DNA of 64,000 nt from an uncultured Elusimicrobia bacterium (GCA_963702895.1 OY969767.1:1100866-1164865); one strand, 5' to 3'. Shown: positions 1-62,344, counted from the first letter of the stretch. A program made the numbers and translations. The notes: generated by a model not told the origin, from the sequence alone.

Positions 1-3000
1 GACACTCGCAAAGCGTTTACGGACTTGGTCGCTAAGCGTTTGAAACGTTCACTCACCGTGGAGACACTGGACTTGGCTCGCGAAATCGATTTTGGCCGGT
101 GGGACGGCCTCAGCGAAGAGGAAATTCTCAAGAAGTGGGGCCTGGACGAATTGGAGCGTGCGAAACGCTATCGTTACGAGGTTGACCCGACGGTTGTCTC
201 GGAGGGTGGAACGTCTTACCTGGATTTCTTGACCCACCAGGCAAGCGATCTGTTGACGTACATTAACGAGAAACACGCGGGCAAAACGGTGCTCCTCTTC
301 GCCCATGGAACATTGGGAAGCGCTCTGAGCGTATTGCTGTCATACCCCGAAGTGGTCACAAAAGAAGGTCACATTGACTGGCGGGCAATGAATATTCCAA
401 ACGCCGTGCCCTTTCAATTGCAGCGCTATTCGCGACCCGCCGCGGATTCGGCTACGCCCACCGCGGGCCAGCCCGCTAGCCCTGAGCGGTTCGGCAGGCT
501 CACCGCAAGCGAGCTCGCCCTGAGCGAAGTCGAAGGGAGTCGAAGGGCCGCCGCGCCGGATACGGCGGACACGGAGACAACAGAAACACCGACACGGGGA
601 CGCGGAGAAACACCCATTGAAGTTTCCCCGCGTCACCCCGTCGCCGCGTCTGCGCGTCCGACGTCCGATCCCGCCGCCGCGTCAACGGATCCTGACAGTA
701 TCGGATCCACAGACGCCAATAAGGATCATCGACATCACCCACCCATCGGCAATAACCCGCACGATGTCCCCGCCGCACAGTTCCCTGTTCGACCCGCTTG
801 GGTCTATGAGCCTTCGGTTCCACAGGAAATGAGGTCTGAATTGGAGGATATGCTCCTAAAAGGACCTCATCTGCGATCGGTTCTGGAACGCGCTGCAGAT
901 AAGACGCGGCACCCGGTCACAATTGCATTTCAAGCCTATATGAACATTGCGGCCAGAATGGGATATACCCCCGAAATGGGATATTCCATTATGTTTTCTC
1001 AGGAATGGTTGGACGATAATGAACCAAACGCATTGGGCGCTCTTGAACATGAAGTAGCACACATCGGGGTCTATGTCGACGGCATCGCTAACCTGGAGGA
1101 TGACCGAACTTTTCAGACGAGTATGAGAACCCGTCCTCGCAATGATTTCTCCCATTCCGTATTGCAAGCGCTCTCCGATTTTATTGCAGTTTGCTATCAG
1201 CTCGAGCTAAATTGGGTATCGGCCGCCAGTTATATCCTGGACGTGGTCGTCGCGCTGAATCAAAAGAGTCATGCTCGGTGGGTCAACATGGCGCCCGGGG
1301 AACAGACGCGACAGGCTGCTTTCCAATATGCACTGCACTATCTACGGAGTTTTATGGCTTTTGATCATGAGAACAGGGGCGTTGATCCTGCGACTCGCGA
1401 AACCTTTACATTGGCCTTCAAAGACATTTTAACAACCGAGGAAATGACAGTAATCCGTGAAGCGCTCAACGAATCACTGAGGGGCATTCCCCTCACCCAT
1501 TTGACTCATGCAGACTTTTTTGATGCGTTATGCAATAAACTCTACACGCTCGTAGGCTCACTTGCTAAACATTCTCGCGCTGCCGCGCCGGGCACAGCCG
1601 ACACGGAGACACGGGGACCCCCCGCCACTGAGGCATTGGCGGGTCCGCCAAGAAGTAGTGGCGGAGGAGACACGGGGAATCAAGGAGCAAGCGATGGCCC
1701 CTCCGCTTTTGACGTTTCCCCGCGTCCCCCCCTCCCCGCGTCCCCGCGTCCGACGCCCAAACCCGCCGCCGCGCCGCCGACAGTCGAACCGGCGAATGGG
1801 CGAGCCGGCGATCTGGCGAAAGACCCGCCAAATGGTTCGCCGACACACCCCGTCGCCAAGTCGCTGACTCGACCGTCCGATCCCGCGTCGGGTTCGACTT
1901 CGCTCACCACAGGCCCTGAGCGAGCGGGAGCGAGTCGAAGGGCTCCCGCGCTGGAAAGTGCTGATGTGAGAAATGGTTCAGAAGAATTGGACATTCTAAG
2001 CCCAACAATCGACGCTTTGGTCAATCAATTGTGGAAAAGCATTTCACTCAATGACGCTGTGGGAAGATCACAAGCGCGGCGAGAATTGGAAGCCCTTGGG
2101 TTTAGTGTTCAAATTGGATTTTCACGTGAAATGCATCCATATTCTGATCCACAACATATTGAAGCGCTTACGATTTATCAGACGTTAACGAAAATGGCGA
2201 CTCCTGAGCAGCTCCGCTCCATCCGAGACGTTCTTTCGCATGGGATGCAAAATATCGCCAAATGGGGAGGTGGCAGAGGATTTTTATTAATGCGGCTGAA
2301 TACCGAAGCAAGGGCCTTTCAAATTGTGATGGGAGATTCTGGATTGGGAATCACATATGGCGAGGGGCCTCTGAAAGGCAGCCACGCACCGATTCATGAG
2401 GCGGTAAAACTCGGACAATCGTTCGCTGCTGGAAGCGATGGGGGAAAAGGGCTGGCTTATATGGTGATCGATCTCGACGACGTCTCTGTCACTAGCATCA
2501 CCCCTGAAGACGGAGTTGCCCGCGGCCATTGGTGGAGAAAAGGATGGCAACGAGAACGCAGATTGAAGAGTAATCAAAACTTACCCTCACAGGGATTAAA
2601 GATTGTTGGCCAAAAACTTCTTGGCCCCGCCGCCGCGCCCGCCACTACACCGTTGGCGGGCAAGCCGGGCGCAGCCGACACGGGGATCGATTCACCGCGT
2701 CCCCGCGTCCCCCCTACTCCGCGTCATGATCTCTCCGCGTCACCGCGTCACCACGTCGCCGCGTCTGACTCTGTCACGGAGCCCGCCGCCGCGCCGGAAC
2801 GCTTGCCCTCCCAGTTGAAAGGGAAATGGGCGTGGTTGTCGAATGCCTGGGGGGAAGCGTTCCATTGGCTCCTGGCTCCGGCGTTTGGGTTTCAAGACGC
2901 CCGGATGGTCTGGCAGAAGGACCAGGCTCCTTACGTGCATGTCCCCGGCTTGCCGGCCCGCGGCGTCCGGGCGTTTCTAATGGCGGCCGTGCATCCGCTG

Positions 3001-6000
3001 ATCAATCTTTTCTGGACCCTTTTCCCCTGGCTCATTTGGGACCAGCTGGCGGGTCTTCCTCAAGGCCCTCCGGCCCAGATCCTGATCACCGCGCTGATTC
3101 TTCACGCCGTCCTCAACGCCTACGGTTTTCTGGGCAACCTGATCAGCTCCTACGTTTCCCTGGTCCCATTGACTTTCTATGAGTATGACCGCGCCTCCGA
3201 CCACCGCTTGATCGCCCGGCCCCGTTTCTCTATTTCCGTTCCGCGGTGGGAGGTTAAAGCCAACTCGGACTGGAACCGGATGGTTTACACGCTTTCGCTT
3301 GGGCGTCTTGGCCGCAAACCGGAGGGGGATGACCTTCATTCCGAACTGCCGCGGGGCGCCACCCCGGAAGACCGCGCCGCGTCGCCGCGTCGCCGCGTCC
3401 CCGCGTCTGCGCGTCCGCCGTCCTATCCTGCCTCGACACCTCTTTCGTTCAAGCAGAAACAAGCTTTCATTCTCGCTCACGAGGACCGTCTTGGGGACCT
3501 CAAAAACCCTCGCCATAAGCGCGTCTTGCGCAGATATTTCCTGGAAGGAAAGACGCAGGAGGTCTTGGCAGCCGAATTGGGTCAAGGCCAGAGCTCAGTG
3601 TCTTCATTAATAGCACGGGCTTTCCGAGCGCTTCTTGATTGGGTGTATCCCGATGAAGCGTCAGACCTCAAATTTGTGCGTGATCACGAAGACCGCCTTA
3701 GGGAACTCAACAACCCTCGCTATGAGAGCATTTTGCGCGGGTATTTCCTGGAAGGAAAGACTCACGAGGTCTTGGCAGCTGAATTGGGTATCTCCGTTCG
3801 CTCAGTCTCTGACTCAAAAAGAACAGCCATCCGAGTTTTTCGTGATAAGGTGAACCCTGATGAAGCGTCAGACCGCAAATTTGTGATCGACCACGAGGGC
3901 CTGCTTGGGCAGCTCGCTCCTTCCCAAGTGCGCGCATTGACCGGGTATTTCCTGGAAGGTAAGACCCTGCCAGAATTGGCGCACGCTTACGGCATCACAA
4001 AACAGGCGGTGGCCGAAGCAAAAGACCTCGGCTTGAGACAACTGCGAAGATGGGTTAAAACTCATGAGTCGCTTCTCCAGGCGCTCGTCGAGATGGATGG
4101 GTTGGTCACAGTCACGCGTATCAGCCGCCAGGTCGGGGTGACTGCGCTGAGGGTCAATTCTCATGGGGGTGTCACGGGACTGGTCGCTGAAGCGGCACCG
4201 CTGCGCGCGCTAGCGAGGCTGGAAGCGGGTCCCCTTTTCACAACGAGGCCGAAAAGAGACCTCAGTCTTCGGGACAAGGGAATGACGCGACACCGGCAGG
4301 CGACGGGATTGCCGCCGCCGGCGAAGGAACAAACCAAAGGGAATTCCTTCCAGGAATCTGTGAATGCCCGATTCAAATCGGGAACGAAGTCTGAATTGAC
4401 GGAATTCCTGGGAAGCTTAACGTCTGATCAACGGAATCGATTAACGGATGTTCAGCGCCGTTTGCTTCTTTTTGTCTGGCTTTTCATCGATGACCCTATG
4501 GGCGGAGACCATTACGGAAAAATTGGTGAAAAGCTAATTGATTTCCCGATGCAAACATGGATTCTCGGGGACCAATCCGAGCGCCAATCTGATCCGTGGA
4601 TTGCCATGACCGGGGTGGCAAAAACTCTGCAATCTTTCATCTATGAGCTAAGCTTTCACTGGCAGCGTGGGATCCCCTGGCGCCGAAAAACGATGATTGA
4701 TGCTTTACAAGGTCCCACCACGGACTTGCTGGGCGCCGATACATACCAACGATTGGCCGTCTTAGCGAGGGAGCGTCGCTATCCAAAGAAGGGAAATCGC
4801 AGCACCCGTTTGGCCGGGATAGACTCCGATGACAGGATTGTTGATAGCATCGGTGGCATGGACTGGGCCAGGGGTGAATGGTTCAGCAAATACATTGACA
4901 CGCCGTATTATGATGCTTATGCAGGTCTTATTCTCGCCCCTACCGCTGCGTCGAATGATCCGACAAAAATAAATCCAGCCCAGACCCCGCTAGCGCGCGC
5001 CCTCTGGTTGAAAATCGCCGGGAAAAGCGCGACCAACACCCGGGCGGAATCCTGGTTTACGGCGGTCCTCGAATGGCTTCCCTGGCTGGCGCTGGTGGGG
5101 GCAGCGGCGCTCCAAGCCCTGCATTCGCCGAGTGGTTATTCCTGGCTGCTGATCCCGGTCAGCGCTTCGATCGCGATGATCTTTTTATACGCCCTGCACG
5201 CGTGGGTCCCCCGGTGGGCCCCGCCAGGCGTTGAACGCGTAAAAGTCGGGCGCGAAACATGGCCCCTGGCGGCCGGCTTGTTTGCTGTGGACGTCTTGGC
5301 GGGCTTCTCGGTGGCTTGGGGCGTGGGGTTGGCGGCGGTGCCACTCGTTCTGCTGGGGTGGTTCCTTCACGCCAGGCACGACCGGCGAATCTTCAATCAA
5401 CGGACGACAGGCGACCGCGATTTTGGAAAAACGGGATTGAGATTCTTTGTCCTTGGCCTTGGAACGATCTGGCTTGGACGGCGGTGGCCGCCCGGTAACG
5501 CCAGCTATTCAGATCCTTCCGAAGAGGAAATCGATAAACATCTTGAAGAAGCGTTCGTCTCGATGGGGAACAAGGACGGTGTCGTCATGCTGGATACCGC
5601 GGCCGCCTACGGCCGATCGGAGGAGCGCCTCGGGCGCTTCTTGCTAAAACGTCCCGATCTGGCGCGACGCGCTTTTATCGCCACGAAGTGGGGTGAGGAG
5701 TTTGATCCAGTGACGAACCGATCGTGGAAGGATTTCTCGGTTCAAAATCTGAGGGCCTCTTTCAAGCGGAGCCAGGATCACCTTGGCAAAGTGGACCTGC
5801 TTTACATCCACATGTCCACGGACGCCTCCGCGGATGTCCTGCGCGACGAGGCTGTGCGGCAGGAGATGGAACGTATGAAAATCGATGGGGAGGTGCGGCT
5901 CATCGGCGCATCGATCTCCAATGAAGCGATCCTGGCCGAGGCTATAGAACAAGGCTCACTGAATGGCTTCGATGTGATCCAGATGCCGGCCCCTCTCTTT

Positions 6001-6306
6001 TTGAAGCGGCCCGCTTTGGCTTCGGCCTTACACCAACGTGGCTTCGCCGTTGTTCTTAATTCCCCTGTCCGCAAAGCGGACAATCAGAATCCCGAAAACG
6101 CAATCCGTGAATTGGCCAACCGGCCCGAGGTTTCCATGATTCTCACGGGGACCCGGATGCACCTGGGAGAAACGGTGAGCTACCTGGGCACACCTCCCAG
6201 CGCGCCCAAAGGAAGGCTTCCGCTTTGGCGGCAATGGAAAAACTGGCTGTTTGCGCCGGCGGATAAAAACGCTCGCTTCTCTCATCGGGTCCGGGCTGCC
6301 GCGTAA
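1..6306 (+). CDS. Giant multidomain protein, 5' end outside the window. Contains histidine-phosphatase-like, HExxH, GHKL/anti-sigma-kinase-like, 3x sigma-70 region-4-like HTH, TM segments and a C-terminal aldo/keto reductase.
   Basis: Frame 1 has no stop from base 1 to TAA 6304-6306, while all other frames are fragmented. Motifs seen: EIDFGRWDG and FAHGTLGS (His phosphatase), LEHEVAHIG, HGMQNIAKWGGGRG/MGDSGLGI/GGKGLAYM, YFLEGKT..LAAELG x3, and LGLGTIWLG/DTAAAYGRSEE/LLYIHMS (AKR). Confidence 0.6.
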   Translation, partial: DTRKAFTDLVAKRLKRSLTVETLDLAREIDFGRWDGLSEEEILKKWGLDELERAKRYRYEVDPTVVSEGGTSYLDFLTHQASDLLTYINEKHAGKTVLLFAHGTLGSALSVLLSYPEVVTKEGHIDWRAMNIPNAVPFQLQRYSRPAADSATPTAGQPASPERFGRLTASELALSEVEGSRRAAAPDTADTETTETPTRGRGETPIEVSPRHPVAASARPTSDPAAASTDPDSIGSTDANKDHRHHPPIGNNPHDVPAAQFPVRPAWVYEPSVPQEMRSELEDMLLKGPHLRSVLERAADKTRHPVTIAFQAYMNIAARMGYTPEMGYSIMFSQEWLDDNEPNALGALEHEVAHIGVYVDGIANLEDDRTFQTSMRTRPRNDFSHSVLQALSDFIAVCYQLELNWVSAASYILDVVVALNQKSHARWVNMAPGEQTRQAAFQYALHYLRSFMAFDHENRGVDPATRETFTLAFKDILTTEEMTVIREALNESLRGIPLTHLTHADFFDALCNKLYTLVGSLAKHSRAAAPGTADTETRGPPATEALAGPPRSSGGGDTGNQGASDGPSAFDVSPRPPLPASPRPTPKPAAAPPTVEPANGRAGDLAKDPPNGSPTHPVAKSLTRPSDPASGSTSLTTGPERAGASRRAPALESADVRNGSEELDILSPTIDALVNQLWKSISLNDAVGRSQARRELEALGFSVQIGFSREMHPYSDPQHIEALTIYQTLTKMATPEQLRSIRDVLSHGMQNIAKWGGGRGFLLMRLNTEARAFQIVMGDSGLGITYGEGPLKGSHAPIHEAVKLGQSFAAGSDGGKGLAYMVIDLDDVSVTSITPEDGVARGHWWRKGWQRERRLKSNQNLPSQGLKIVGQKLLGPAAAPATTPLAGKPGAADTGIDSPRPRVPPTPRHDLSASPRHHVAASDSVTEPAAAPERLPSQLKGKWAWLSNAWGEAFHWLLAPAFGFQDARMVWQKDQAPYVHVPGLPARGVRAFLMAAVHPLINLFWTLFPWLIWDQLAGLPQGPPAQILITALILHAVLNAYGFLGNLISSYVSLVPLTFYEYDRASDHRLIARPRFSISVPRWEVKANSDWNRMVYTLSLGRLGRKPEGDDLHSELPRGATPEDRAASPRRRVPASARPPSYPASTPLSFKQKQAFILAHEDRLGDLKNPRHKRVLRRYFLEGKTQEVLAAELGQGQSSVSSLIARAFRALLDWVYPDEASDLKFVRDHEDRLRELNNPRYESILRGYFLEGKTHEVLAAELGISVRSVSDSKRTAIRVFRDKVNPDEASDRKFVIDHEGLLGQLAPSQVRALTGYFLEGKTLPELAHAYGITKQAVAEAKDLGLRQLRRWVKTHESLLQALVEMDGLVTVTRISRQVGVTALRVNSHGGVTGLVAEAAPLRALARLEAGPLFTTRPKRDLSLRDKGMTRHRQATGLPPPAKEQTKGNSFQESVNARFKSGTKSELTEFLGSLTSDQRNRLTDVQRRLLLFVWLFIDDPMGGDHYGKIGEKLIDFPMQTWILGDQSERQSDPWIAMTGVAKTLQSFIYELSFHWQRGIPWRRKTMIDALQGPTTDLLGADTYQRLAVLARERRYPKKGNRSTRLAGIDSDDRIVDSIGGMDWARGEWFSKYIDTPYYDAYAGLILAPTAASNDPTKINPAQTPLARALWLKIAGKSATNTRAESWFTAVLEWLPWLALVGAAALQALHSPSGYSWLLIPVSASIAMIFLYALHAWVPRWAPPGVERVKVGRETWPLAAGLFAVDVLAGFSVAWGVGLAAVPLVLLGWFLHARHDRRIFNQRTTGDRDFGKTGLRFFVLGLGTIWLGRRWPPGNASYSDPSEEEIDKHLEEAFVSMGNKDGVVMLDTAAAYGRSEERLGRFLLKRPDLARRAFIATKWGEEFDPVTNRSWKDFSVQNLRASFKRSQDHLGKVDLLYIHMSTDASADVLRDEAVRQEMERMKIDGEVRLIGASISNEAILAEAIEQGSLNGFDVIQMPAPLFLKRPALASALHQRGFAVVLNSPVRKADNQNPENAIRELANRPEVSMILTGTRMHLGETVSYLGTPPSAPKGRLPLWRQWKNWLFAPADKNARFSHRVRAAA
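557..683. repeat. 8-nt-period inverted tandem-repeat hairpin element (GGRGACRC / CCGCGTCN class), in frame in the giant ORF
   Basis: Left arm is about 7 units (cggatacg gcggacac ggagacaa ... gggacgcg gagaaaca). Loop is cccattgaagttt. Right arm is about 7 units (ccccgcgt caccccgt cgccgcgt ctgcgcgt ...). Translates as TADTETTETPTRGRGE..SPRHPVAASARPTSDP. Confidence 0.7.
1048..1062 (+). other. HExxH motif (HEVAH) within the giant ORF
   Basis: cat gaa gta gca cac is in frame, in the context LGALEHEVAHIGVY. Zincin-like motif only; no further fold evidence. Confidence 0.4.
1598..1755. repeat. Composite 8-nt-period hairpin element (GACACGGR / CCCCGCGT class), in frame in the giant ORF
   Basis: ccgacacg gagacacg gggacccc and ggagacacggggaatc face tttccccgcgtcccccctccccgcgtccccgcgtccgacg. 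An inner inverted repeat ccgccact...agtggcgg is also present. Confidence 0.65.
1791..1864. repeat. 8-nt-period hairpin element (GGCGARNN / NNTCGCC class), in frame in the giant ORF
   Basis: ggcgaatg ggcgagcc ggcgatct ggcgaaag is followed by ...ggttcgcc gacacacc ccgtcgcc aagtcgc. Confidence 0.6.
2239..2470 (+). other. GHKL-type ATPase-like segment (SpoIIAB/RsbW-like) of the giant ORF
   Basis: N-box-like HGMQNIAKW, G1-like MGDSGLGI and G2-like GGKGLAYM occur in the expected order. Confidence 0.45.
2675..2768. repeat. 8-nt-period repeat element with a short left arm and a long CCGCGTCN right arm, in frame in the giant ORF
   Basis: ccgacacggggatc is followed by caccgcgt ccccgcgt ... ctccgcgt caccgcgt caccacgt cgccgcgt. 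Translates as SPRPRVPPTPRHDLSASPRHHVAAS. Confidence 0.65.
3375..3422. repeat. Six tandem 8-nt units (CGCCGCGT type), half-element, in frame in the giant ORF
   Basis: cgccgcgt x3, then ccccgcgt, ctgcgcgt, ccgccgtc. The 48 nt equal 16 codons (ASPRRRVPASARPPS). Confidence 0.75.
3466..4086 (+). repeat. Three tandem 207-nt coding repeats, each a sigma-70 region-4 / LuxR-like HTH module
   Basis: Units start at 3466, 3673 and 3880. Peptide pattern is F(I/V)xDHExxLxxLxxP..LRxYFLEGKTxxxLAxELGxSxxSV...PDEASDxK. DNA-level similarity includes tatttcctggaagg(a/t)aagac in all three. Confidence 0.8.
5430..6303 (+). other. Aldo/keto reductase domain at the C-terminus of the giant ORF
   Basis: GLRFFVLGLGTIWLG, MLDTAAAYGRSEERLGRFL, FIATKWG, DLLYIHMS and IGASISN are typical AKR landmarks. 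Confidence 0.75.
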
Positions 6307-6364
6307 TATCCCCCTCTGAAGCTGATTCAAATCTCAAATGGAGTGATCCTTTGAAGCAGATCCA

Positions 6365-6438
6365 GTGATTAGGCAGGTTCTCCTTGAAAAATTAAGCAGG
6401 TTGGCTGAGAGATTAGGTAGGCTCCTCCCAGAGAAGCG
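6365..6438. repeat. Array A: 3-4 contiguous ~21-nt direct repeats (GATTAGGCAGGTT type) abutting the ORF6N stop codon
   Basis: Units are gtgattaggcaggttctccttga, aaaattaagcaggttggctgag, agattaggtaggctcctcccag. Confidence 0.7.
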
Positions 6439-6951
6439 CTATTCATGCTTGAAGCCTTTGATCCGTAATGGGGCATCCGCCGGCTTTGCCATCAGCCCAC
6501 GGATCGCGTCGAAGACCACTTTAAATTGCGCGTCGTATTTGTTTTCCAGCTCATGCAGCTTGCGGGCCAAGTCTTTGTGAGTGGCCAACATCTCTCTGAT
6601 CCTTACAAAGGCATCCACAACCGCGAGGCTTGCTTTCACGGCGGTCTCACTATTGAGAACGCAAGCCAGCATGATCGCGCCATGCTCCGTGAAAACAAGG
6701 GGCAAATAACGTCGCCCTCCGTGGGCCATTCTTGAGGTCGCATTTTGCGACCTCAAGCGGCGCGCTTCCCCTTCGGCAAGCTGGAACATATATCGAGGCG
6801 GGAACCGGATTCGATTTCGCTTCACCTGTTCATTCAAACGTTTGGTCGTTACTCCATAGAGTTCCGCCAGATCTTCGTCCAGCATCACTTTATATCCACG
6901 AATCAGATAAATATACTGCTCAATCTTGATGCTCGGTACAGGTTTATTCAT
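6439..6951 (-). CDS. ORF6N-domain (KilA-N-related) DNA-binding protein
   Basis: IEQYIYLIRGYKVMLDEDLAELYGVTTKRLNEQVKRNRIRFPPRYMFQL is a textbook ORF6N signature. ATG at 6951 is preceded by GGAGAGGAGG. Confidence 0.85.
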   Translation of the reverse strand: MNKPVPSIKIEQYIYLIRGYKVMLDEDLAELYGVTTKRLNEQVKRNRIRFPPRYMFQLAEGEARRLRSQNATSRMAHGGRRYLPLVFTEHGAIMLACVLNSETAVKASLAVVDAFVRIREMLATHKDLARKLHELENKYDAQFKVVFDAIRGLMAKPADAPLRIKGFKHE

Positions 6952-7116
6952 GGGCTCCTCCTCTCCCTTAGATGGAGAACACCCGAAAATATTCACTGCT
7001 TAGACAAAGAGTTCAGACCCATCCGAGAACCCATTGCGTTTCGCATTTCGCCTTTTACATTCTTCATTTTGACTTGAGACACACCAGCGGTCGCAAGAGA
7101 TGAAGCAGCTTCGTCA

Positions 7117-7414
7117 AAGATTAGGCAGGTTCCCCTGGAAAGATTAAGCAGGTTCACGGAAAGATTGAGACGGCTCCTCGAAGAACGAGACGGTTGGTCG
7201 GGAAAGAAAGAGACGGTTGGCAAAGAGAATGAGACGGCTCCTCGAAGATTAGGTAGGTGACCCCGGAAAGATTAGGCAGGTTGGCCGAAAGATTAGGTAA
7301 GTTCCTCGAAGATTAGGTAAGTTCCCCGCGAAAGATTAGGTAAGTCGACCGAAAGATTAGGTAAGCTGGCGGAAAGATTAGGTAAGTTGACCGAAAGATT
7401 AAGCAGGTCTGTCC
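7117..7414. repeat. Array B: about 14 contiguous 19-23-nt direct repeats, consensus AAGATTAGGTAAGTTsnCCG
   Basis: Units were read one by one. The left units are degenerate (aagattgagacggctcctcg, aagaacgagacggttgg...). The right units are near-perfect. The last unit supplies the final codons and stop of the 7399 ORF. Confidence 0.85.
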
Positions 7415-7749
7415 GCGCCGGACGGCACGGGTTGGTACAGCGTGGCGGGGTCACGGGGATCGCCGGAGCGCTTGATCAGGCCGCGGTCCATGAGGTTGCC
7501 CAGGATTCTTAAGGTGGCCGTGCGCGAAAGGTTTAGCAGCTTTTCCACATCCTCCCGGCGCAGGCCGGCGCTCTGGCGCGCGGCGTCCAGGATCATCTTC
7601 TCGTAGCGTTCCCGTTTGCGGCTGACCCAGCGGTTTTGGGTGGAGGGGGGCAGGGGGTGACGAAGGCGTCGGCGCCGCGGCCTGGCCTTCGCCCTCGAGC
7701 TGTTGTTTGAGCCCCCGTGCGCCTTTTCAAACAGGTCGAACAGATCAGG
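7399..7749 (-). pseudogene. 5'-truncated, frameshifted duplicate of the 3' end (wHTH domain) of gene 9680..10423
   Basis: 7442-7573 differs from 9723-9854 at 4 positions by eye. Upstream homology continues to about 7730 but reads RPRRRRLRHPLPPSTQ where the intact copy reads GESAAPPPSSPTPSTQ (frame change). No TM region or start is present. Confidence 0.7.
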
Positions 7750-7834
7750 TCAAGCAAATCCAGGTTCCAAACACGCTTCATCGCAAAGGATGTGGAAGGC
7801 GAGCGCAGGGTTCTGTTATACAATCATCGTCAAG

Positions 7835-8482
7835 ATGACGCCAAAGGATCGTTACGATGTGTCCGATTTGCCGGAGGCGCAGTTTGAGCCGGGCTCACGA
7901 AGGCAGGTTCTGCGCAATCGTTTAGGCATCAGAACGATTGCCGCCATGGAGAATGCCGAAGAGCTGGCCTTGAAAAAGGCGACAGACATTCTTCTGCATA
8001 CCTACTCAAAGGACCATCGCTTTAAGGCCAATGACATCCGTCATATGCACCGGCTTTGGCTATCGGACATCTACGGCTGGGCAGGCAATTATCGGAGGGT
8101 CAATCTGAGCAAGACGGGATTCATGTTTGCTGTTGCCCAGCACGTTCCCGGATTGATGCAGGAATTTGAAACGACTGCTCTGAAAGAATGCACCCCTTGT
8201 CATCCTGGGGATATTGAGACGATTGCAGAACATTTGGCGAAGGTCCACGTTGAACTCGTGCTGATACACCCCTTCCGGGAAGGAAACGGACGTGTTGCCC
8301 GGCTACTCACGACCTTCATGGCGCTCCAGGCCGATCTGCCGCTCCTGGATTACAGAAGCATTCTGGGGAAATCGACACCCGTTTATTTTGCCGCCATTCA
8401 AGCGGGCATGAAACGAGACTACTTGCCCATGCGGAAAGTGATGAAATCAGTGATTGCGCGTACGCTCAGGCGGCTTTCTTAA
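7835..8482 (+). CDS. Fic/DOC family protein (likely AMPylating toxin)
   Basis: Canonical Fic motif IHPFREGNGRVARLL (HxFx[D/E]GNGRxxR). ATG at 7835; the longer TTG start at 7703 is probably spurious. No internal SxxxE[G/N] inhibitory motif was seen. Confidence 0.85.
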   Translation: MTPKDRYDVSDLPEAQFEPGSRRQVLRNRLGIRTIAAMENAEELALKKATDILLHTYSKDHRFKANDIRHMHRLWLSDIYGWAGNYRRVNLSKTGFMFAVAQHVPGLMQEFETTALKECTPCHPGDIETIAEHLAKVHVELVLIHPFREGNGRVARLLTTFMALQADLPLLDYRSILGKSTPVYFAAIQAGMKRDYLPMRKVMKSVIARTLRRLS

Positions 8483-8636
8483 ACAGGCGTATTTTCTGCT
8501 TTAAGGTGCGGAGCGCCGTGGCAAAAGAACCCGTTTCGACGGCGGTAGAAGAGGCGACGTTCAGCGTGAGCGCCTTTTCGTATTTGCGCCGGTCTCGAAG
8601 GTAGGGGCTCGTCGCCAGCAGTGATTTCTTTTTCAT
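8466..8636 (-). CDS. Small ORF (56 aa), candidate VbhA-like Fic antitoxin, convergent with and overlapping the fic 3' end by 17 nt
   Basis: My own translation is MKKKSLLATSPYLRDRRKYEKALTLNVASSTAVETGSFATALRTLKQKIRLFKKAA. STAVET resembles the alpha-inh motif [S/T]xxxE[G/N], with T instead of G/N. It falls below the 60-aa cutoff of the ORF track. Confidence 0.4.
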   Translation of the reverse strand: MKKKSLLATSPYLRDRRKYEKALTLNVASSTAVETGSFATALRTLKQKIRLFKKAA

Positions 8637-8702
8637 GAAACAAGTCTACCATGATGGCCGCACCAATTCCAGACTTCCCAGCCGTTGCAGAAAGGACCTC
8701 CT

Positions 8703-9449
8703 ATGAAATTCGAGCTTTCTGACGAACAACTGAAAAATCTGCTGGTTCTGGCGTATCTGGGCGAATGGATGGCTAATGCGACCAGGGAAGAGCCGATCAA
8801 AGACTATGAGCAAGCCGCTTCCAGGATTTACGCCCTGGCCCAAGGAACCGCGCTGGAGCGCTACGTGGACTACGATGATCAGTCGCGGCGGTGGTGGCCC
8901 AGCAAGGAGCTGGACGAAGCAGCGGAACCGTTGCGCAGCGATTATGACGATGAGACGTTCTGGGACGAACTGCTGGACCGCCTGATCGACCGGGACCTTG
9001 CCGCAACATACGGGGTTGGGATTTTGGGTTCGAAGGACCGTGATAAATATTGCGCCCTGCGAGAGCCGATCGAGTCACGCTACGGGACGGAGTTTGAACG
9101 CTTTGGGATTGATCGCCTCAAGCTGCCCGAGGGTCTTCCTGAAGAAGACGCTTACTCCCCCTCGCCGGCCCAGGCGACAGCGATGGGCTTGGCGTGGTAC
9201 CGGTCCGATCAATGGGAACAGCTTCGGTCCATCTCCGCGGACCGCGATGAGCTCGAAGAAAGATACGTGGAATGGTTAAAGACCGCTTCTAACCTCTTTT
9301 CCCAGCTCACGCTGCGGGGTCAAGAGATCAAAAAGGTATTAGTGGACGTCAATGATCTCGCCAAATGGTGTAAAGCCAAGGGCCTTCTTGTCGATTCCCA
9401 TTCCCGATCTGCTTTCGTCGCGGACCAGCTCCGAACGACGAAGTCCTGA
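8703..9449 (+). CDS. Acidic hypothetical protein (248 aa), cargo of the Fic cassette
   Basis: Long non-repetitive ORF with ATG at 8703. No motif recognised. Confidence 0.6.
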   Translation: MKFELSDEQLKNLLVLAYLGEWMANATREEPIKDYEQAASRIYALAQGTALERYVDYDDQSRRWWPSKELDEAAEPLRSDYDDETFWDELLDRLIDRDLAATYGVGILGSKDRDKYCALREPIESRYGTEFERFGIDRLKLPEGLPEEDAYSPSPAQATAMGLAWYRSDQWEQLRSISADRDELEERYVEWLKTASNLFSQLTLRGQEIKKVLVDVNDLAKWCKAKGLLVDSHSRSAFVADQLRTTKS

Positions 9450-9526
9450 CAAGCATCCGCTTCCCGGAGGTTGGCAGTACGAATGAGCGCCGAAGGACGC
9501 CAAAGCGACCCGAGGCCGGATTGGCA

Positions 9527-9695
9527 AATAGATTAACCGGGTTCCTCGAAGATCGGGCCGGTTCCCCGAAAGATTAGGCAGGTTGGCCGAAAGATTAGGT
9601 AAGTTCCTCGAAGATTAGGTAAGTTCCCTGCGGAAGATTAGGTAAGTTGGCCGAAAGATTAGGTAAGTTAACCGAAAGATTAGGCAGGCTTGTCC
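9527..9695. repeat. Array C: 8 contiguous ~20-nt direct repeats, same family and order as the right part of array B
   Basis: Units include aagattaggcaggttggccga, aagattaggtaagttcctcg, aagattaggtaagttccctgcgg. The last unit encodes KPA-stop of gene 9680..10423. Confidence 0.85.
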
Positions 9696-10423
9696 GTCGC
9701 AGCCTGCCCGGATTGGTAGAGCGTGGCGGGGTCACGGGGATCGCCGGCGCGCTTGATCAGGCCGCGGTCCATGAGGCTGCCCAGGATCCTTAAGGTGGCC
9801 GTGCGCGAAAGGTTCAGCAGCTTTTCCACATCCTCCCGGCGCAGGCCGGCGCTCTTGCCAGTGGCGTCCAGGACAATCTTCTCGTAGCGTTCCCGCTTCC
9901 GGCTGACCCAGCGGTGTTGGGTGGAGGGGGTAGGGGGTGACGAAGGCGGCGGGGCCGCGGACTCGCCTTTGGCCTCGAGCTGCCGTTCGAGTTCCTGATG
10001 CGCTTTTTCCTCCACGCGGACGCTCAACCACCGGGAGGCACTCGATCCGATGTAGAACCCGAGGACTTCGAAGGCAATCAAGGTAAGTCCCTTGGGGTAG
10101 GCCAGGCGCGCCGGCCAGATCTCGGAGCCGAGCACCGCCACGAGCAGGAAGACCGCCCATAGTCCGACGAACCATTCCCCTTTGAGCCGGAAAGGCGCGG
10201 GTTGCGTCTCTCCTTCGGCCGCCAGTTTCTCCGGATGGAAGCCGATCGTCCACCGGTGGACTTCTTTCCCCCCCACATAAGCCGAAAGCAATGCCAGGTA
10301 GAAGGCGTTGGCGGTGCTGACGTTGATCTGGACATGAGCGGCGGTGGCGAACTCCGCGACCTGCACGCCGAAAAGAGCCAGGGTGTAGAGCGCGCTCAGC
10401 CAGAAAAGAAAGGTCATGCTCAA
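9680..10423 (-). CDS. Membrane protein with about 4 TM helices, a coiled-coil linker and a C-terminal winged-helix (MarR-like) domain
   Basis: Hydrophobic N-terminal half. C-terminus is GLRREDVEKLLNLSRTATLRILGSLMDRGLIKRAGDPRDPATLY. Its ATG overlaps the ogt stop (ATGA). Confidence 0.7.
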   Translation of the reverse strand: MSMTFLFWLSALYTLALFGVQVAEFATAAHVQINVSTANAFYLALLSAYVGGKEVHRWTIGFHPEKLAAEGETQPAPFRLKGEWFVGLWAVFLLVAVLGSEIWPARLAYPKGLTLIAFEVLGFYIGSSASRWLSVRVEEKAHQELERQLEAKGESAAPPPSSPPTPSTQHRWVSRKRERYEKIVLDATGKSAGLRREDVEKLLNLSRTATLRILGSLMDRGLIKRAGDPRDPATLYQSGQAATDKPA

Positions 10424-15403: not shown

Positions 15404-16069
15404 TCAGGATTTCTTCGTAATGCGGCGTGCCAGACGCTCGGCGTGCCACAGGAAGAAGGAGCGCAGCGCGGTCAGGCTCAGCGGATCAATCATGCGAGGC
15501 AGCAACGTGACCCCTTTGACTTTAAAAAACGACATCGCCAAACAGTAGTCGTCCAATTCCCTGTATTTGCGGCGTGCCTGAATGATCAGTTTCCGCAGCG
15601 GCATGTGCGTCTGATCGATTCGGTACACATCAACGAAATCCTTGGGTTCGGCACGCTCGGAAAGCGCCGAAAGTTTGTTGCAGGCAATATCGAGCAGATT
15701 GTCCAGGCGAACGCCTGCCGTCTCGAGGGTTTTTCTCACGGGTTTCAGGCGGCCGGGCATGTCGAGAGCGAAATCCATCTCGAGGCGCTTATAGCGAGGA
15801 TGAATCAGGGCGCATTCAAAGAGGGTCTGGAATCGCCTGCCAAAGACGATGCGCGCGCCAAGCCGTCTGGCGATTTTTCTCACAATGGGGGGTACGCGGG
15901 CAACGGCCCCCGGGGTTTGAGTAAAAAAATCGAGGTCGTCGGAATAGCGGTGCTTCAGATAGAAGGCCGATAGGGCGGTGCCGCCTGTCAGGTAGAAATC
16001 ACGCAACAAGGGTTCCCTTCCAAGGAGGCGAAGCGCATGTATTTGAAACGGCGTGAGAATGTCGCCCAT
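15404..16069 (-). CDS. AbiEii/AbiGii-type nucleotidyltransferase (DUF1814) toxin-family protein
   Basis: FYLTGGTALSAFYLKHRYSDDLDFF signature. ATG at 16069; the 104-codon upstream extension is judged spurious. Its stop abuts the uvrC region. Confidence 0.75.
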   Translation of the reverse strand: MGDILTPFQIHALRLLGREPLLRDFYLTGGTALSAFYLKHRYSDDLDFFTQTPGAVARVPPIVRKIARRLGARIVFGRRFQTLFECALIHPRYKRLEMDFALDMPGRLKPVRKTLETAGVRLDNLLDIACNKLSALSERAEPKDFVDVYRIDQTHMPLRKLIIQARRKYRELDDYCLAMSFFKVKGVTLLPRMIDPLSLTALRSFFLWHAERLARRITKKS

Positions 16070-16077
16070 CGTTCGCT

Positions 16078-16293
16078 TCAACGGGAGCGCCCGAGATACC
16101 ACGCCCAGAAAGAGCGAATGGAAAGAGGGAGATTGAGAACGGAAAAGTAGCGACGGATGGTCGGCAGCCCCAGCCCTCGGATGTCGCGATCTCCGCCGCG
16201 GACCAGGACACGAGCCACGTACCATCGACGAAATGCCTCGTCTGGCTTTGCGGGTACCGGATAATCCCAAACCAGGGCGGGATTGATTTTCAT
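16078..16293 (-). CDS. Small partner protein (71 aa) upstream of the AbiEii-like NTase, candidate antitoxin/adaptor
   Basis: Stop lies 8 nt before the NTase start. NPALVWDYP...VARVLVRGGDRD...FWAW resembles small proteins I recall next to DUF1814 genes; this is from memory, not verified. Confidence 0.45.
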   Translation of the reverse strand: MKINPALVWDYPVPAKPDEAFRRWYVARVLVRGGDRDIRGLGLPTIRRYFSVLNLPLSIRSFWAWYLGRSR

Positions 16294-16331
16294 GGATGCT
16301 CATAGTGTAAACCGTCGCAGGAACCGGGTCA

Positions 16332-16361
16332 AGGAGTGTTTTCTCCAGGAGTGTTTTCTCT
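16332..16361. promoter_or_regulatory. Perfect 14/15-nt tandem duplication in a divergent promoter region, candidate operator
   Basis: aggagtgttttctcc aggagtgttttctct lies 39-68 nt upstream of the 16293 start and 27 nt upstream of the 16388 start. Confidence 0.35.
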
Positions 16362-16387
16362 GGAAGCCCGCTGAAGTCCATGGTGAT

Positions 16388-24566: not shown

Positions 24567-24596
24567 CGTTAGCCCTAAATCTTTGGTTCGGCGTAA

Positions 24597-25842
<1,246 letters not shown>

Positions 25843-25872
25843 CTCTCCCGCCTCACGGCGGGAGAGGGGACA
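25843..25872. repeat. REP-like hairpin CTCTCCCGCC-TCAC-GGCGGGAGAG, perfect 10-bp stem
   Basis: Same element as 17551-17574, including the trailing gggaca. Confidence 0.8.
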
Positions 25873-25923
25873 AGAAAGTGCGGCCGATTCAGACGGCAGG
25901 ACCTCGCCAACGGAAGATTGGGG

Positions 25924-29326: not shown

Positions 29327-32300
29327 TTATTTCCGGAGGTAGATCAGCTTAAAAATGGCTTTTTCGCCCAGCGCGCGCGAAATGGCTTCCGTGTAAGCTT
29401 GAGCCTGCAGAGCGTAGGGGTCGGATTCGACGGCCGAACGACCGACGTTTTGGGTCGTTTTGTAGTCCCCCACCACGAGCTGCCCGGATGGGAGGCGGTA
29501 GAGGATATCGAGGGTGCCCCGCATCAGCTGACGTATCGGCGTATCGGCGTGCCGGCGTACCGGAGTAACGTCGTTACCCCGATACTCCGATACCCCGATA
29601 CTCCGATCCTGTTCACTATCATAGAAGAACGGCACCTCCCTCCCTAAAATCTCCGATCCTTTGATCTCCTCGTAGTCCTTCGATCGCATAAAGTCGGCCA
29701 AGAGGCGCTGGGCCTCCTCCACGACGGCGATGATTTCGGGAGGGTTGCTGGTTTTCCGGCCCAGCTTCAGCTCAGGAAAAGGTTCCAACAGGAGGCCTTC
29801 TTGAGCGAAAGAGGTGTTCGCGACTCGGCGTAAGGCCGTTGGCATCGTCTCTTTTTCAGCTTGAAAGTCCCAGGTTTCGAGGAATTGATGGACGAGCGTG
29901 CCCAGCCGTGCGGGATCGATACGGCGAAGCGGAGAATCGGCGAAGCGGCGAGTGGACCACTTCTCTGGCTCGCCGGCTCGCCGGCTCGCCGGCTCAGTCC
30001 ATTGTGTGGGGCTCATCACCCGTAACGTCTTCATCGCTTGTTCATAAGTTTCGGACTGCTCCTGCCACCGCGCGGCGAGTTCGACTGGCTTAATCGCGGC
30101 CAGCCAGGCTGGCTTCGTTGAGTCGGGCGCAGGCAAGGGCGCCTCCTTCGAAGTGATCGTGTGGGCCGTGAGGGTGCTTTCGCCCATACGGATGAGGCCA
30201 TCCCCCAGTTCATCCAGATTGAGTTTCCAGGCACTCGCAAGCTGGTTGAGGAAACTGTCTTTCGCAGGTCGCTTCAAGTGGATGCCTCCGGACAAAATGA
30301 GCCGCTCTTTGGCGCGGGTCATGGCCACATAGAGGATGCGCAAGTCTTCGGCCGCCTCCCGGACCTTGGCGTCTTCCTCCAGCGCCGCGCAGTCGAGGCT
30401 TTCCACATCCTTGTCCAGCGCGATGCCGAGGCGTCCCGTCGCCCAATCGTAATGCACGCGGAGATTATCCTTCCGCCTGTTTCCGCCCTTGCCTCGGTGC
30501 AGACCGGGGAGCCAGACCACAGGAAACTCCAATCCTTTTGCTTTATGCACGGTCAGGAGCCGCACGGCATCATAGGTTTCGTCTGCAAGAGGATACTCCC
30601 CTTCCAACCGGTCGTTTTCCATAAAGCGGTCGATCTTTCCTAACAGACCGCCCAACGTGGTTTCACCTTCCTCCGCAAAGGATTCCATCAGGCGCTTGAG
30701 CTTGAGCAGGTTCGCCATTGTCTGGTCTTGGTGATAGGAACGGGCCGCGAGTTCCATGAGATAGGTGTCTTCATAGACATGGTTCAAAATGGATTTCAGG
30801 GGCTCACGCTGGGCCCTTCTCTGCAAGTTGTTGATCAACTGGAACGTTTTTGCGGCGTGCTGGTCCTCCGGGGGCGCTCTCCATCCGGCCTCTTTGATCG
30901 CTGTGAGCTCAGGGTCTGTAAAGCCCCCCAGCGGCGATCGCAAGAATCCCGCTAAGGCCAGGTGATGGGAAGGGTCCTCGGTCACACGGAGGAGGTTGAG
31001 AACATCGGTCACCTCGGGTGTGCGATAGAAGTAGCGTTCGGCCTCGACCACAAAGGGAATATGGCGCCGGCGAAGCTCCTCGATAAAAGGCAGCATCGCG
31101 GTGGTGGCGCGGAAGATGAGCGCGATGTCCTTAAACCGAAGGCCGTCCGACGTGCGACGTCCGAGGTCCATATCACTTAGGTTTGTACGTGCCTCTTTGA
31201 CGTCGGACGTAGGACGTCGGACGCGGGAATCGATCCACGCCGCGGCGTCCGCCGCTTCTTGTTCGAGAGCTTCCTCGGAGGTTTGTGGTTCGCCGGAAAC
31301 GGCCAGTCGTAATTCCACATCCTGGTGCTCGCTCTCTTTGGCCCGCCGGGGGACGAGGGCTTGATAGGCGGGTGAGATCGGATGCTGTTCCTTCATGAGC
31401 GACGAGAACGTGGTGTTGATCGTGTGGATGATCTGGTCGTGGGAGCGATAACTGTCTTCAAGACTGAGGCGCTGGCCGCCTTGCGCGAGCACCATCTCCG
31501 TGATGCGCTGGTAGGCCGCAATGTCAGCGCCGCGAAAACGGTAGATCGATTGCTTCGGATCACCCACAAGGAAGAGTTTCCCGGGTTCGAGCTTCACTTG
31601 GTCCCAGCGTTTGGCCTGGGTGCCGAGCTGCTCCGAGAGAAAGACCAGGAGCTCGCCCTGAAGCGGGTCGGTGTCCTGGAATTCGTCGACGAAAATCTGC
31701 CGGATCTTGTTCTTTAAAGTCTCCCTGACATGCGCCTCACGCGCCACCAGCTCACGGGCAAGCACGAGGAGCGCGTCATTCGAAAGATGTCCCTCTGCCA
31801 AAATCTTGGCGCGGAAACGCGCGACAAATGGCTTAAGCAATTGGGTCAGGTCGCGAAGCTTGACGTTTTCTTCTGCGCCCTGAAGCGGCAGGCGATCCAA
31901 GGGCACATCAAATTCACACAGGCGCCGCGCGAGTTCTCTGATTTTCCCAAGGGAAACCGTCTGCAAGACGTTGAGCCAATCACTTGCTCGAGGCTCGAGG
32001 CGATGGGCTCCTGACGAATGTGGGGTGTGCTGGCCTGGGGCATGGAGCCTGGAGCTGTCTCGGATTCTGGGGCCTGTGCCCTGGAGTTCGTGCCTCAACC
32101 AGGCAGGCCATTCTTTTTCAAAGAGATCATCGGCCCGTACGCCCTTGTCATCGACTTCCGCGGCGGGACTGATGCCTGCGGCGATGGGAAAACGTTTCAA
32201 CAGGCTGAAGGCGTAAGAATGGATCGTTCCAATCGCGGCGCGGTCGATGGCCTCCAGCGCCTCGCGCGCGCGGGATTTCCGATCGTCCGAGGCATCGCGC

Positions 32301-59442: not shown

Positions 59443-60522
59443 TTAACGGGTCGACCGGTTCCAGAGACGTTCGAACTCCCGTTTGAAGCGAGGCGCCTGG
59501 TCATCGAGTACCACGAAGTTCTCATCGTTTCTTTGGGTCGCATTAGACGTCCAGTTAAAGCTCCCCGTGAGGACGTATCGGTCATCAAGAATAAGGAATT
59601 TGTGGTGCAGGATGCCTCCTTTGCTGCCCCGCTGGATGCGTATGGGAATGCCGGCACTGCGCAAAAGATCGCTGACATCACGCTTTCCTGCGGCTTGCGT
59701 TTTGTCGTGGACGACGCGCACCTTCACGCCGCGGAGTTTCGCCTGGACCAGAGCCCTGGCGATCTTTTCATCGGTGAGGCCATAGATGGCGCCGTCAAGC
59801 GACTTTTCGGCTGAGGCAATCCAGGACGTCATGACTTGGTCGCAGTGCCCGAGCGGACTAAAACACGTGTCAAGGGTCCTGGCTGCCAGCGGCAGAGCCA
59901 CCAGGGTCAGCCCCGTGGCGAGAACCAGGCATGCGGCTCTCCTGGCTGTCCGCTTTTTCAACATCCAGAGGGCCAGGACGAGGTAAACCGCGGCCAGCGC
60001 TGCGTAGTTGGAGAGCATGAAGGTTTTGTTACCCCAGGAGGTGCCTTCATAAAACGGTGTCGGGAACGGCCAGAGGTAAGGCGTTGCAAAAAAACGGCTG
60101 GAGTGGGTCGGTATATCGCCCAGGATATGGAGGGCCCAGGCACCCAGCGGCATCAGTGACCGTAACGGAGTAACGGGGTAACGGGGTAACGGAGTCACGT
60201 CATTTTGTAATTGCTCTGACCCCGATACTCCGGTACTCCGATACTCCGATACGGCCCAAAGTACTGCAAAGACGGCGGCCCACACCACCAAGCTGTGCGT
60301 GACATCGTAGGCATGATACACGTACGCGGGGATCGTGCTGGGGTCCGGCGGGCCGTGGCGGCCCTTCGCCCAGCGCTCACCGATATCACCCAAATGGGTC
60401 AGAAAGAAGGGGCCGAAAGATAAGAGGTCCGGTGCCACACCTGCGAGGAACGCCTGCTTCCAGCGCTTCTGGCAGAGTCCGAAGGCGGCCCCACCCCACA
60501 GTCCATGAGCTAGCGTGTCCAT
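59443..60522 (-). CDS. Fusion of a YdjM/DUF457-like membrane hydrolase domain with a PLD-family (Nuc-like, HKD) domain
   Basis: N-terminus MDTLAHGLWGGAAFG plus multiple TM segments. C-terminus GGILHHKFLILDDRYVLTGSFNWTSNATQRNDEN (HxKx4D...N). Confidence 0.75.
   Translation of the reverse strand: MDTLAHGLWGGAAFGLCQKRWKQAFLAGVAPDLLSFGPFFLTHLGDIGERWAKGRHGPPDPSTIPAYVYHAYDVTHSLVVWAAVFAVLWAVSEYRSTGVSGSEQLQNDVTPLPRYPVTPLRSLMPLGAWALHILGDIPTHSSRFFATPYLWPFPTPFYEGTSWGNKTFMLSNYAALAAVYLVLALWMLKKRTARRAACLVLATGLTLVALPLAARTLDTCFSPLGHCDQVMTSWIASAEKSLDGAIYGLTDEKIARALVQAKLRGVKVRVVHDKTQAAGKRDVSDLLRSAGIPIRIQRGSKGGILHHKFLILDDRYVLTGSFNWTSNATQRNDENFVVLDDQAPRFKREFERLWNRSTR
60161..60252. repeat. 8-nt-period hairpin element (GTAACGG / CCGATAC class), in frame in the YdjM-PLD gene
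   Basis: cgtaacgg agtaacgg ggtaacgg ggtaacgg agtcacg, a 20-nt loop, then ccccgatac tccggtac tccgatac tccgatac. Peptide is SEYRSTGVSGSEQLQNDVTPLPRYPVTPLRS. Confidence 0.85.
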
Positions 60523-60528
60523 AGTGCC

Positions 60529-60612
60529 AGTATCGGAGTAACGGGGTATCGGGGTATCGGCGTAACAGCAGGTTGTGTGTAATAGAGCAACAGCGTAACA
60601 GCTGTATCGGAG
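60529..60612. repeat. Intergenic 8-nt tandem units (GTATCGG/GTAACGG/GTAACAG), same orientation
   Basis: gtatcgg agtaacgg ggtatcgg ggtatcgg cgtaacag ... cgtaacag ctgtatcgg. Begins 7 nt upstream of the YdjM-PLD start codon. Confidence 0.8.
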
Positions 60613-60723
60613 TCCTGGGGTGTCCGGGCATTGTAGTGATGGGGAAACGGTGTAACGATATTGGGCAAGGGCTCAGTCCGAAGAAAAATCTGGTTTCCAG
60701 AATTTATCTGGTTGTTGGTGTGA

Positions 60724-60756
60724 CCCCGGTACTCCGCTACTCCCATACACCGATAC
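60724..60756. repeat. Complementary 8-nt units (CCGNTAC), partner arm of 60529-60612 across a ~110-nt spacer
   Basis: ccccggtac tccgctac tcccatac accgatac. Ends 5 nt before the SEC-C gene stop. Confidence 0.7.
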
Positions 60757-60761
60757 TAGCT

Positions 60762-62223: not shown

Positions 62224-62233
62224 ATGAGGTTGA

Positions 62234-62323
62234 GCCGGCGAGTCGGCGAGTCGGCGAGTCGGCGCAAGAACGATCCAAGCGGTCTCCCACATTCCGCCGG
62301 TTCGCCGGTTCGCCAGTTCACCG
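62234..62323. repeat. 8-nt-period hairpin element (GTCGGCGA / TCGCCGGT class) in the leader between pheT and the kinase-deaminase gene
   Basis: gccggcga gtcggcga gtcggcga gtcggcg, a 29-nt loop, then ccgccggt tcgccggt tcgccagt tcaccg. Confidence 0.85.
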
Positions 62324-62344
62324 TTTCCCTTTGTCTTCGGAACG

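Follow-up and report, generated by a model that had tools for sequence, protein, structure and literature searches.

In the 64,000-nucleotide (nt) stretch of an uncultured Elusimicrobia bacterium considered here (GCA_963702895.1 OY969767.1:1100866-1164865; hereafter, the window), a gene coding for a membrane protein with a winged helix-turn-helix (wHTH) domain is followed by an array of short direct repeats, and the 3′ end of this gene, together with its array, is present twice, on both sides of a 1.8-kb insert carrying a Fic-family gene. The gene and the array represent a conserved, previously undescribed functional module, and the membership of the repeated unit in this module is a more informative result than the insertion footprint as such. 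A duplicated gene end flanking an insert is a classic sign of integrative elements; an insertion footprint at the 3′ end of the gene, proposed in an earlier note made from the sequence alone, is a reasonable but unproven explanation. The module marks a hotspot capturing accessory genes without a nearby integrase.

The Duplicated Gene End

Pairwise alignment places the two direct, collinear copies (Table 1) close to the intervals estimated in the earlier note (~7240-7745 and 9545-10030, in window coordinates). The copies are ~88% identical; the left one has an additional 21-nt array unit, and two 1-nt insertions or deletions (indels) also set them apart. Each copy covers the cytoplasmic linker and the MarR-like wHTH domain of a protein with four transmembrane (TM) helices, followed by an array with a period of ~21 nt. 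Past 7728/10010, the identity drops to the random level of 38%, in agreement with the loss of homology described near 7730 and 10010, and the edge of the duplication at 7729/10010 is sharp; distal to the copies, weak similarity persists to about 7165/9482. Since the similarity reaches ~330 nt into the gene, the duplication is wider than the arrays, and the similarity restricted to the arrays, which the earlier note named as the outcome speaking against it, was not found.

The identity is distributed unevenly along the copies. It is the highest among the coding segments in the wHTH core (94% at 7442-7600), where the four mismatches previously counted between 7442-7573 and 9723-9854 are exact (positions 7467, 7496, 7507, and 7534). 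In the linker (7601-7727), it amounts to 85%, with 55-80% near the boundary, and in the codons of the C-terminal tail (7405-7441) to 74%, with 65% over the 20 nt at 7410-7429. The array core is 79% identical if the extra left 21-nt unit is counted, and it harbors a segment, spacers included, that is identical at 60 of 60 positions (7270-7329). Hence, a perfect array-spacer stretch lies directly beside a stretch with 65% identity, and identical runs of 28-60 nt are present within the duplication. Such mosaic identity is as expected from recombination or gene conversion between the copies.

The right copy completes an intact open reading frame (ORF), and the left one is a 5′-truncated and frameshifted relic, both as initially described. 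The relic begins just past the last TM helix, at a point equivalent to residue ~139; two frame changes, at the two 1-nt indels, are needed to read it, and its last 82 codons are open. Amino acid comparison gives the relic 81% identity with the right copy, 75% with the paralog P0002, and 80% with the ortholog P0004. The paralog, overlooked in the earlier note, is a full-length gene product 82% identical to that of the intact gene and is encoded on the same 2.72-Mb contig outside the window; look-ups by exact protein sequence yielded no entry for either of the two. The codons of the relic and the right copy differ by 6 synonymous and 15 non-synonymous changes; in the wHTH core, the ratio is four synonymous to two non-synonymous, and the non-synonymous changes are clustered in the segments variable within the family. 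The pattern of substitutions fits alleles that would have diverged while both were functional, rather than a recent in-place duplicate decaying neutrally. Paralog-level divergence, clustered non-synonymous changes, and mosaic identity thus collectively suggest two module copies that diverged while both were functional, came to lie side by side, and have exchanged patches since.

The Gene and the Array as a Module

Four TM helices are predicted in the 247-residue protein, followed by a linker and, at the C-terminus, a MarR-like winged helix. In its AlphaFold2 (AF2) model, the predicted local distance difference test (pLDDT) score is 85-91 at residues ~170-240, and the best Foldseek matches of the protein in the PDB are MarR, MexR, and MepR. 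The TM-wHTH family is small, with 17 clusters among 5.8 billion proteins, and a profile search gave five representatives at E < 1e-30. Scans with the family profile revealed three loci in genomes and seven in metagenomes; in viral contigs and plasmids, neither the family profile nor the array motif was matched.

With no more than two mismatches allowed, 19 occurrences of the unit motif AAGATTAGGYARGT were counted, on one strand and in three arrays only, whereas 0.63 would be expected by chance. The conserved core of the unit is 13-14 nt long, the cores are separated by 7-9 nt, and the first unit of array 3 includes the stop codon of the intact gene. This constant array partner of the gene also escaped the earlier note. 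An array follows the gene in every wHTH-bearing relative with readable downstream DNA (43-73% amino acid identity), with the same strandedness as the gene, a start no farther than ~25 nt from the stop codon, and a lineage-specific core. The spacing is 20-23 nt in six of the seven lineages scored by motif count and 12-22 nt in L003; the motif counts in these seven lineages are 10- to 300-fold above the shuffled expectation. Thus, seven units of CCTGCTYAMTYT followed by tRNA-Ala were found in L002 (73% amino acid identity), CTTACTCAYTT units in L004, L007, and L008 (64%), 11 units of CTCCTRYCGGWTCT in L009 (48% in the wHTH domain), and AAGCTRCY units in L003 (43%). In L025, 6-7 units of ~21-22 nt were read by eye in a dnaG-rpoD-aminotransferase neighborhood, and the contigs L014 and L015 end inside the array.

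On the minus strand of the window, the order is uvrC, two M16 peptidase genes, ogt, the 247-residue gene, array 3, the insert, the relic, array 2, the ORF6N-domain gene, array 1, and the convergent end of a giant ORF. Of the earlier statement that the wHTH gene ends a housekeeping operon, the identity of the neighbors stood, but a housekeeping role is not obvious, and the genomic context is different in every lineage.

Relatives from Patescibacteria (candidate phyla radiation) possessing the TM domain only lack an array; hence, the array goes with the wHTH domain. In three of the patescibacterial contigs (L006, L010, and L013), such homologs of about 125-150 residues with a conserved YVGSKE..RW motif are located directly upstream of rpmE, the gene of ribosomal protein L31. 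Since the TM-only homologs adjoin rpmE, their distribution suggests that the membrane domain is older and housekeeping-linked, and that the wHTH domain and the array joined it in the Elusimicrobia-like lineage.

A spacing of ~21 bp places successive sites on one face of the B-DNA helix. Similar recognition-helix sequences are paired with similar array units, a correspondence that is confounded by phylogeny. Alternative identities of the array were considered as well. As an RNA element, it shows no Rfam match and folds no better than shuffled sequences (z = 0.12). A coding repeat is ruled out, since the variable unit spacing of 20-23 nt keeps no reading frame. The RNA of a type III (ToxIN-like) toxin–antitoxin system was rejected on the same folding and Rfam results and because the arrays are downstream of the gene and have ~21-nt instead of ~36-nt units. 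The cores of 13-14 nt with gaps of 7-9 nt are likewise unlike the 24-48-nt repeats and similar-size spacers of a CRISPR array, and cas genes were absent among the ORFs tested. A promoter and terminator scan was uninformative. Being conserved beside the gene, phased, and neither an RNA element nor coding, the arrays are therefore read as putative cognate DNA sites of the wHTH domain.

Other Duplicated Array Ends

The duplication around the Fic cassette is accompanied by smaller ones. Array 1 reproduces the distal end of array 2 (7101-7180) collinearly at ~80% identity, the non-repeat terminal TGAAGCAG included; hence, a 0.67-kb unit carrying the ORF6N-domain gene is likewise enclosed by directly repeated DNA. 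The ORF6N gene was initially credited with an array of its own: an array is indeed present, but it duplicates the distal end of array 2. In the distant relative L009, 130 nt of the distal array end recur with ~85% identity upstream of a block composed of 480 nt, a YefM/YoeB pair, the wHTH gene, and the full array. Duplicated array segments beside selfish or defense genes thus recur in independent lineages. The two additional array-end duplications around accessory genes (ORF6N and L009) support the earlier suggestion that the arrays may serve as a recombination substrate.

As to the placement of toxin–antitoxin genes, the duplicated array ends of L009 lie at 1150-1275 and 3120-3250 of that contig, and the YefM/YoeB pair, a type II system, directly precedes the TM-wHTH gene in the same orientation. 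A RelE/ParE-type toxin–antitoxin pair, also of type II, occupies the same position and orientation in L004 (292-892).

The Insert and the Search for a Recombinase

The content of the interval between the copies, i.e., fic, a small convergent ORF, and a 248-residue gene, is as initially described, and the insert fills this interval exactly. The features of the region are collected in Table 1.

Table 1. Features of the duplicated region and its surroundings (window coordinates).
Feature	Position	Strand	Composition and evidence
Array 1	6352..6432	-	3 units and TGAAGCAG motif; repeat search and local alignment
ORF6N-domain gene	6439..6951	-	170 residues from ATG; Pfam ORF6N E 1.8e-31; PADLOC PDLC04869 (PDC-S05) E 1e-50
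Array 2	7101..7408	-	14 units: 8 canonical, 4 variant GAGACGG, 2 canonical, then terminal TGAAGCAG motif
Left copy of the direct duplication	7238..7729	-	Proximal 8 units of array 2 and wHTH relic; alignment
Relic of the TM-wHTH gene	7399..7729	-	3′ third of the gene (linker and wHTH); 5′-truncated, two 1-nt indels
Fic/DOC-family gene	7835..8482	+	Pfam Fic E 1.2e-17; PADLOC PDLC04839 (PDC-S04) E 8e-71; alternative start 7790
56-residue basic ORF	8466..8636	-	Convergent with Fic, overlaps its 3′ end; tblastn to L024
248-residue gene	8703..9449	+	N-terminal ~143 residues in a family of hypothetical proteins
Array 3	9528..9689	-	6 canonical and 2 degenerate units, spacing 20-23 nt, gene-strand core AACYTRCCTAATCTT
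Right copy of the direct duplication	9540..10010	-	Array 3 and 3′ 330 nt of the intact gene; alignment
Intact TM-wHTH gene	9680..10423	-	247 residues; Pfam MarR_2/HVO_A0261_N matches, all below gathering score; AF2 model; Foldseek

The Fic motif HxFx(D/E)GNGRxxR is intact in the translation (HPFREGNGRVAR), and the NCBIfam matches of the gene to Fic/VbhT-like families are all below the cut-off. Judging by their similarity to the PADLOC candidate families PDC-S04 and PDC-S05, respectively, the Fic and ORF6N genes are candidate phage-defense genes. In both cases the hidden Markov model matches are strong; the genes are not found here within restriction–modification, BREX, or DISARM systems, but beside the wHTH-array module. 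Such cargo gene types are typical of accessory islands. The 56-residue convergent ORF is a real gene: its counterpart in L024, a metagenome-assembled genome of Elusimicrobia (GCA_016196785.1), is 61% identical over 54 residues (tblastn, E 9e-20) and adjoins a Fic homolog. The nucleotide homology to L024 is confined to 7844-8654 of the window, and the L024 locus has no arrays and carries an AbiEi_1-like gene upstream of Fic. Hence, the Fic pair moves independently of the arrays. The Fic homolog of L024 itself (3174-3749, 191 residues) bears an internal deletion and lacks the HPF..GNGR histidine region. For the 248-residue gene, no match was found in Pfam, NCBIfam, PADLOC, PDB sequences, or Foldseek, and the genomic context of its homologs is unlinked to Fic. 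A check suggested in the earlier note, for the same cargo next to similar arrays elsewhere, gave no second copy, and the pair in L024 is array-free.

Pfam scans revealed no integrase or transposase in the insert, nor among the ORFs tested between 1 and 24.5 kb. The sole recombinase-like gene among the ORFs tested across the window codes for an IS110-family transposase (DEDD_Tnp_IS110 and Transposase_20; 24795-25817, plus strand) in an element spanning roughly 24590-25900, ~15 kb from the cassette. Thus, the earlier statement that integrases and transposases are lacking holds for the cassette and its neighborhood but not for the whole window. The IS110 element was considered as a mobilizer and rejected: neither array units nor matching ends are present nearby, and its flanks showed no match to a bridge-RNA or Rfam family.

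Origin of the Duplication

The arrangement can be tentatively attributed, with a probability somewhat short of even, to homology-driven exchange between two copies of the module (Campbell-type or unequal), which captured the cargo. A second copy, allelic or paralogous, would have diverged while functional and would have been linked to the Fic/56-residue pair and the 248-residue gene. RecA-type homologous exchange with the resident gene would then have followed, either as a single-crossover (Campbell-type) insertion of circular DNA bearing a module fragment and the cargo or as an equivalent unequal exchange between two module copies. The outcome would be the intact gene at 9680-10423, the 1.8 kb of cargo, and the displaced 3′ fragment at 7399-7729, which would have gained its two frameshifts later. 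Once side by side, the copies may have exchanged patches. On a smaller scale, the same process may account for the ~80-nt duplication around ORF6N that derives from the distal array end, and a reversed exchange would free a circle of the cargo and one repeat. The recombination pathway and its direction are those we infer; no dedicated integrase would be required, because the module supplies the homology.

In Campbell-type integration and in cis-mobilizable elements (CIMEs), long homologous direct repeats flank the insert, and reversal yields a circle of the cargo and one repeat. The long direct repeats with perfect stretches that such integration implies were found here (~0.49 kb, ~88% identity, identical runs up to 60 nt), around an insert devoid of mobility genes. 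At the same time, CIMEs have short att sites of a known integrase of an integrative and conjugative element, which are absent here, and neither a circle nor a donor was seen. Of the element proposed in the earlier note to have integrated at the 3′ end of the gene, what stands is the combination of an intact gene, a relic, and no adjacent recombinase; a discrete mobile element is not established.

Several points weigh against homology-driven exchange. An identity of 80-88% is low for efficient RecA exchange, though identical runs of 28-60 nt exist, and the circular donor is hypothetical. No relative with ogt/M16 synteny was found among the three genomic and seven metagenomic loci from the family-profile scans, so that an empty site is lacking in this set. 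Excision, circular, or deletion junctions were not found in the two public runs containing the sequence, which are too shallow for this purpose (~2-4x contig depth, 150-nt pieces). The argument from synonymous and non-synonymous changes involves few sites (roughly P ~ 0.04). Finally, the accessory block of L009 is situated upstream of the wHTH gene and is unexplained by a simple downstream Campbell insertion.

An unlikely but serious alternative is the relic of a tandem paralog: the module would have been duplicated in place, or two full-length genes would once have stood next to each other. The Fic block would have arrived afterwards, either settling between the two genes or displacing the 5′ two-thirds of the downstream one, as an event independent of the duplication. 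The module does multiply, as the full-length paralog P0002 testifies, the paralog-level divergence of the left fragment suits an old paralog, and the lack of a detected empty site is in line with this scenario. On the other hand, tandem wHTH genes were found in none of the relatives, and the cargo occupies exactly the interval between the copies. Moreover, the brackets around ORF6N and in L009 consist of array ends only, so each would need an extra duplication and deletion, and the 60-nt perfect run in the arrays would need later gene conversion.

Less probable still is a site-specific remnant of the kind known for e14 and phage 21, in which the attP site would have brought a replacement 3′ end and the tyrosine or serine recombinase would have been lost or would act in trans, as for a CIME. 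On integration into icd, these elements replace the 3′ end of the gene, and e14 leaves a 163-bp pseudo-icd (PMC6379469). There, as here, the target is kept intact by an incoming diverged 3′ end, and the displaced original end forms the direct repeat at the far side (PMC6379469). The architecture (an intact completed gene, a displaced pseudo-3′-end at the far side, and cargo between the direct repeats) fits this precedent. However, e14 is a ~15-kb prophage remnant with its own integrase and a 163-bp repeat, whereas the insert under consideration is only 1.8 kb long and the repeat is 0.49 kb including a non-coding array; no recombinase is encoded in or beside the insert, and the IS110 transposase 15 kb away is not associated with array units. 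Furthermore, the boundary, with its identity of 55-80%, shows no evident short perfect core, and in L024 the Fic pair is accompanied by neither arrays nor att-like repeats.

A more elaborate possibility, regarded as doubtful, is a capture platform: the protein would coat the array, and defense or toxin–antitoxin cassettes with array fragments would integrate and excise in an integron-like manner, with direct repeats instead of attC/attI and no canonical integrase; alternatively, a membrane-tethering, centromere-like device would gather such genes. Like integron cassettes, the units are small, comprise one or two accessory or defense genes, each with a repeat-containing site, and are stacked beside a conserved gene. 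Unlike in integrons, Pfam scans show no IntI, the sites are direct 21-nt units but not the imperfect inverted repeats of attC, and the cassette genes are in both orientations with their own upstream regions. An integron attC array was accordingly rejected as the identity of the repeats, which are direct and on one strand, with no inverted repeats at the cassette borders.

Phased repeat arrays bound by the protein of a neighboring gene are known from iterons and Rep, tubC and the wHTH protein TubR, sopC and SopB, and stbDR and StbA. The similarity to these arrays includes short direct repeats about two helical turns apart beside a wHTH gene, as well as the co-divergence of repeat and protein. 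The differences are that the protein is membrane-anchored, as predicted, and that the contexts are chromosomal. No ParA, ParM, TubZ, or Rep partner was found among the neighbors, and no plasmid or viral relatives in the collections searched.

A repeat-induced misjoin in the metagenome-derived genome, which the breaking of the relatives' short-read contigs inside the hard-to-assemble arrays (L001, L014, and L015) might bring to mind, is very improbable. The Logan contig L001, assembled separately (run ERR11561443), matches 7545-9597 at 100% identity and spans both inner junctions; moreover, with mismatches at about 12% of positions, as well as indels, the two copies are not a single repeat that was collapsed or duplicated.

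Neighboring Genes and Mini-Arrays

Another toxin or defense gene in the operon region, coding for an AbiEii-type nucleotidyltransferase toxin, lies directly upstream of uvrC (15404-16381, minus strand). The giant ORF on the other side of the region (25-6306, plus strand; 2093 residues) encodes a histidine-phosphatase and an aldo/keto reductase domain in one frame, along with three sigma-70 region-4 modules and TM segments. It contains a 207-nt tandem repeat at 3477-3885, corresponding to the sigma-70 region-4 modules, and proline/arginine-rich low-complexity linkers between the domains; either a genuine fusion or a read-through of several genes is conceivable.

Repeats of another kind were also observed in the window, namely pairs of mini-arrays with 4-5 tandem units of 7-8 nt each (29532-29607, 29922-29995, 60162-60252, 60530-60757, and 62232-62327) and more mini-arrays at 1717-1820, 2692-2772, 3375-3420, and 39392-39425. 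Several of the pairs face each other as near-inverted sets, e.g., (GTATCGGN)x4 opposite (NCCGATAC)x4. Some are located inside ORFs with good Pfam matches, e.g., an AddA-like helicase-nuclease, where gain or loss of a unit would shift the frame because 8 nt is not a multiple of three.

Biological Significance

The footprint of a duplicated end around accessory genes was seen three times without a nearby recombinase, twice in the window and once in a distant relative, and each time at the gene-array module. If the arrays provide the homology, they would offer a simple, integrase-free route for capturing and exchanging small defense and toxin genes in the poorly studied Elusimicrobia-like bacteria. 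The module itself is a clean candidate for a protein encoded together with its cognate DNA sites.

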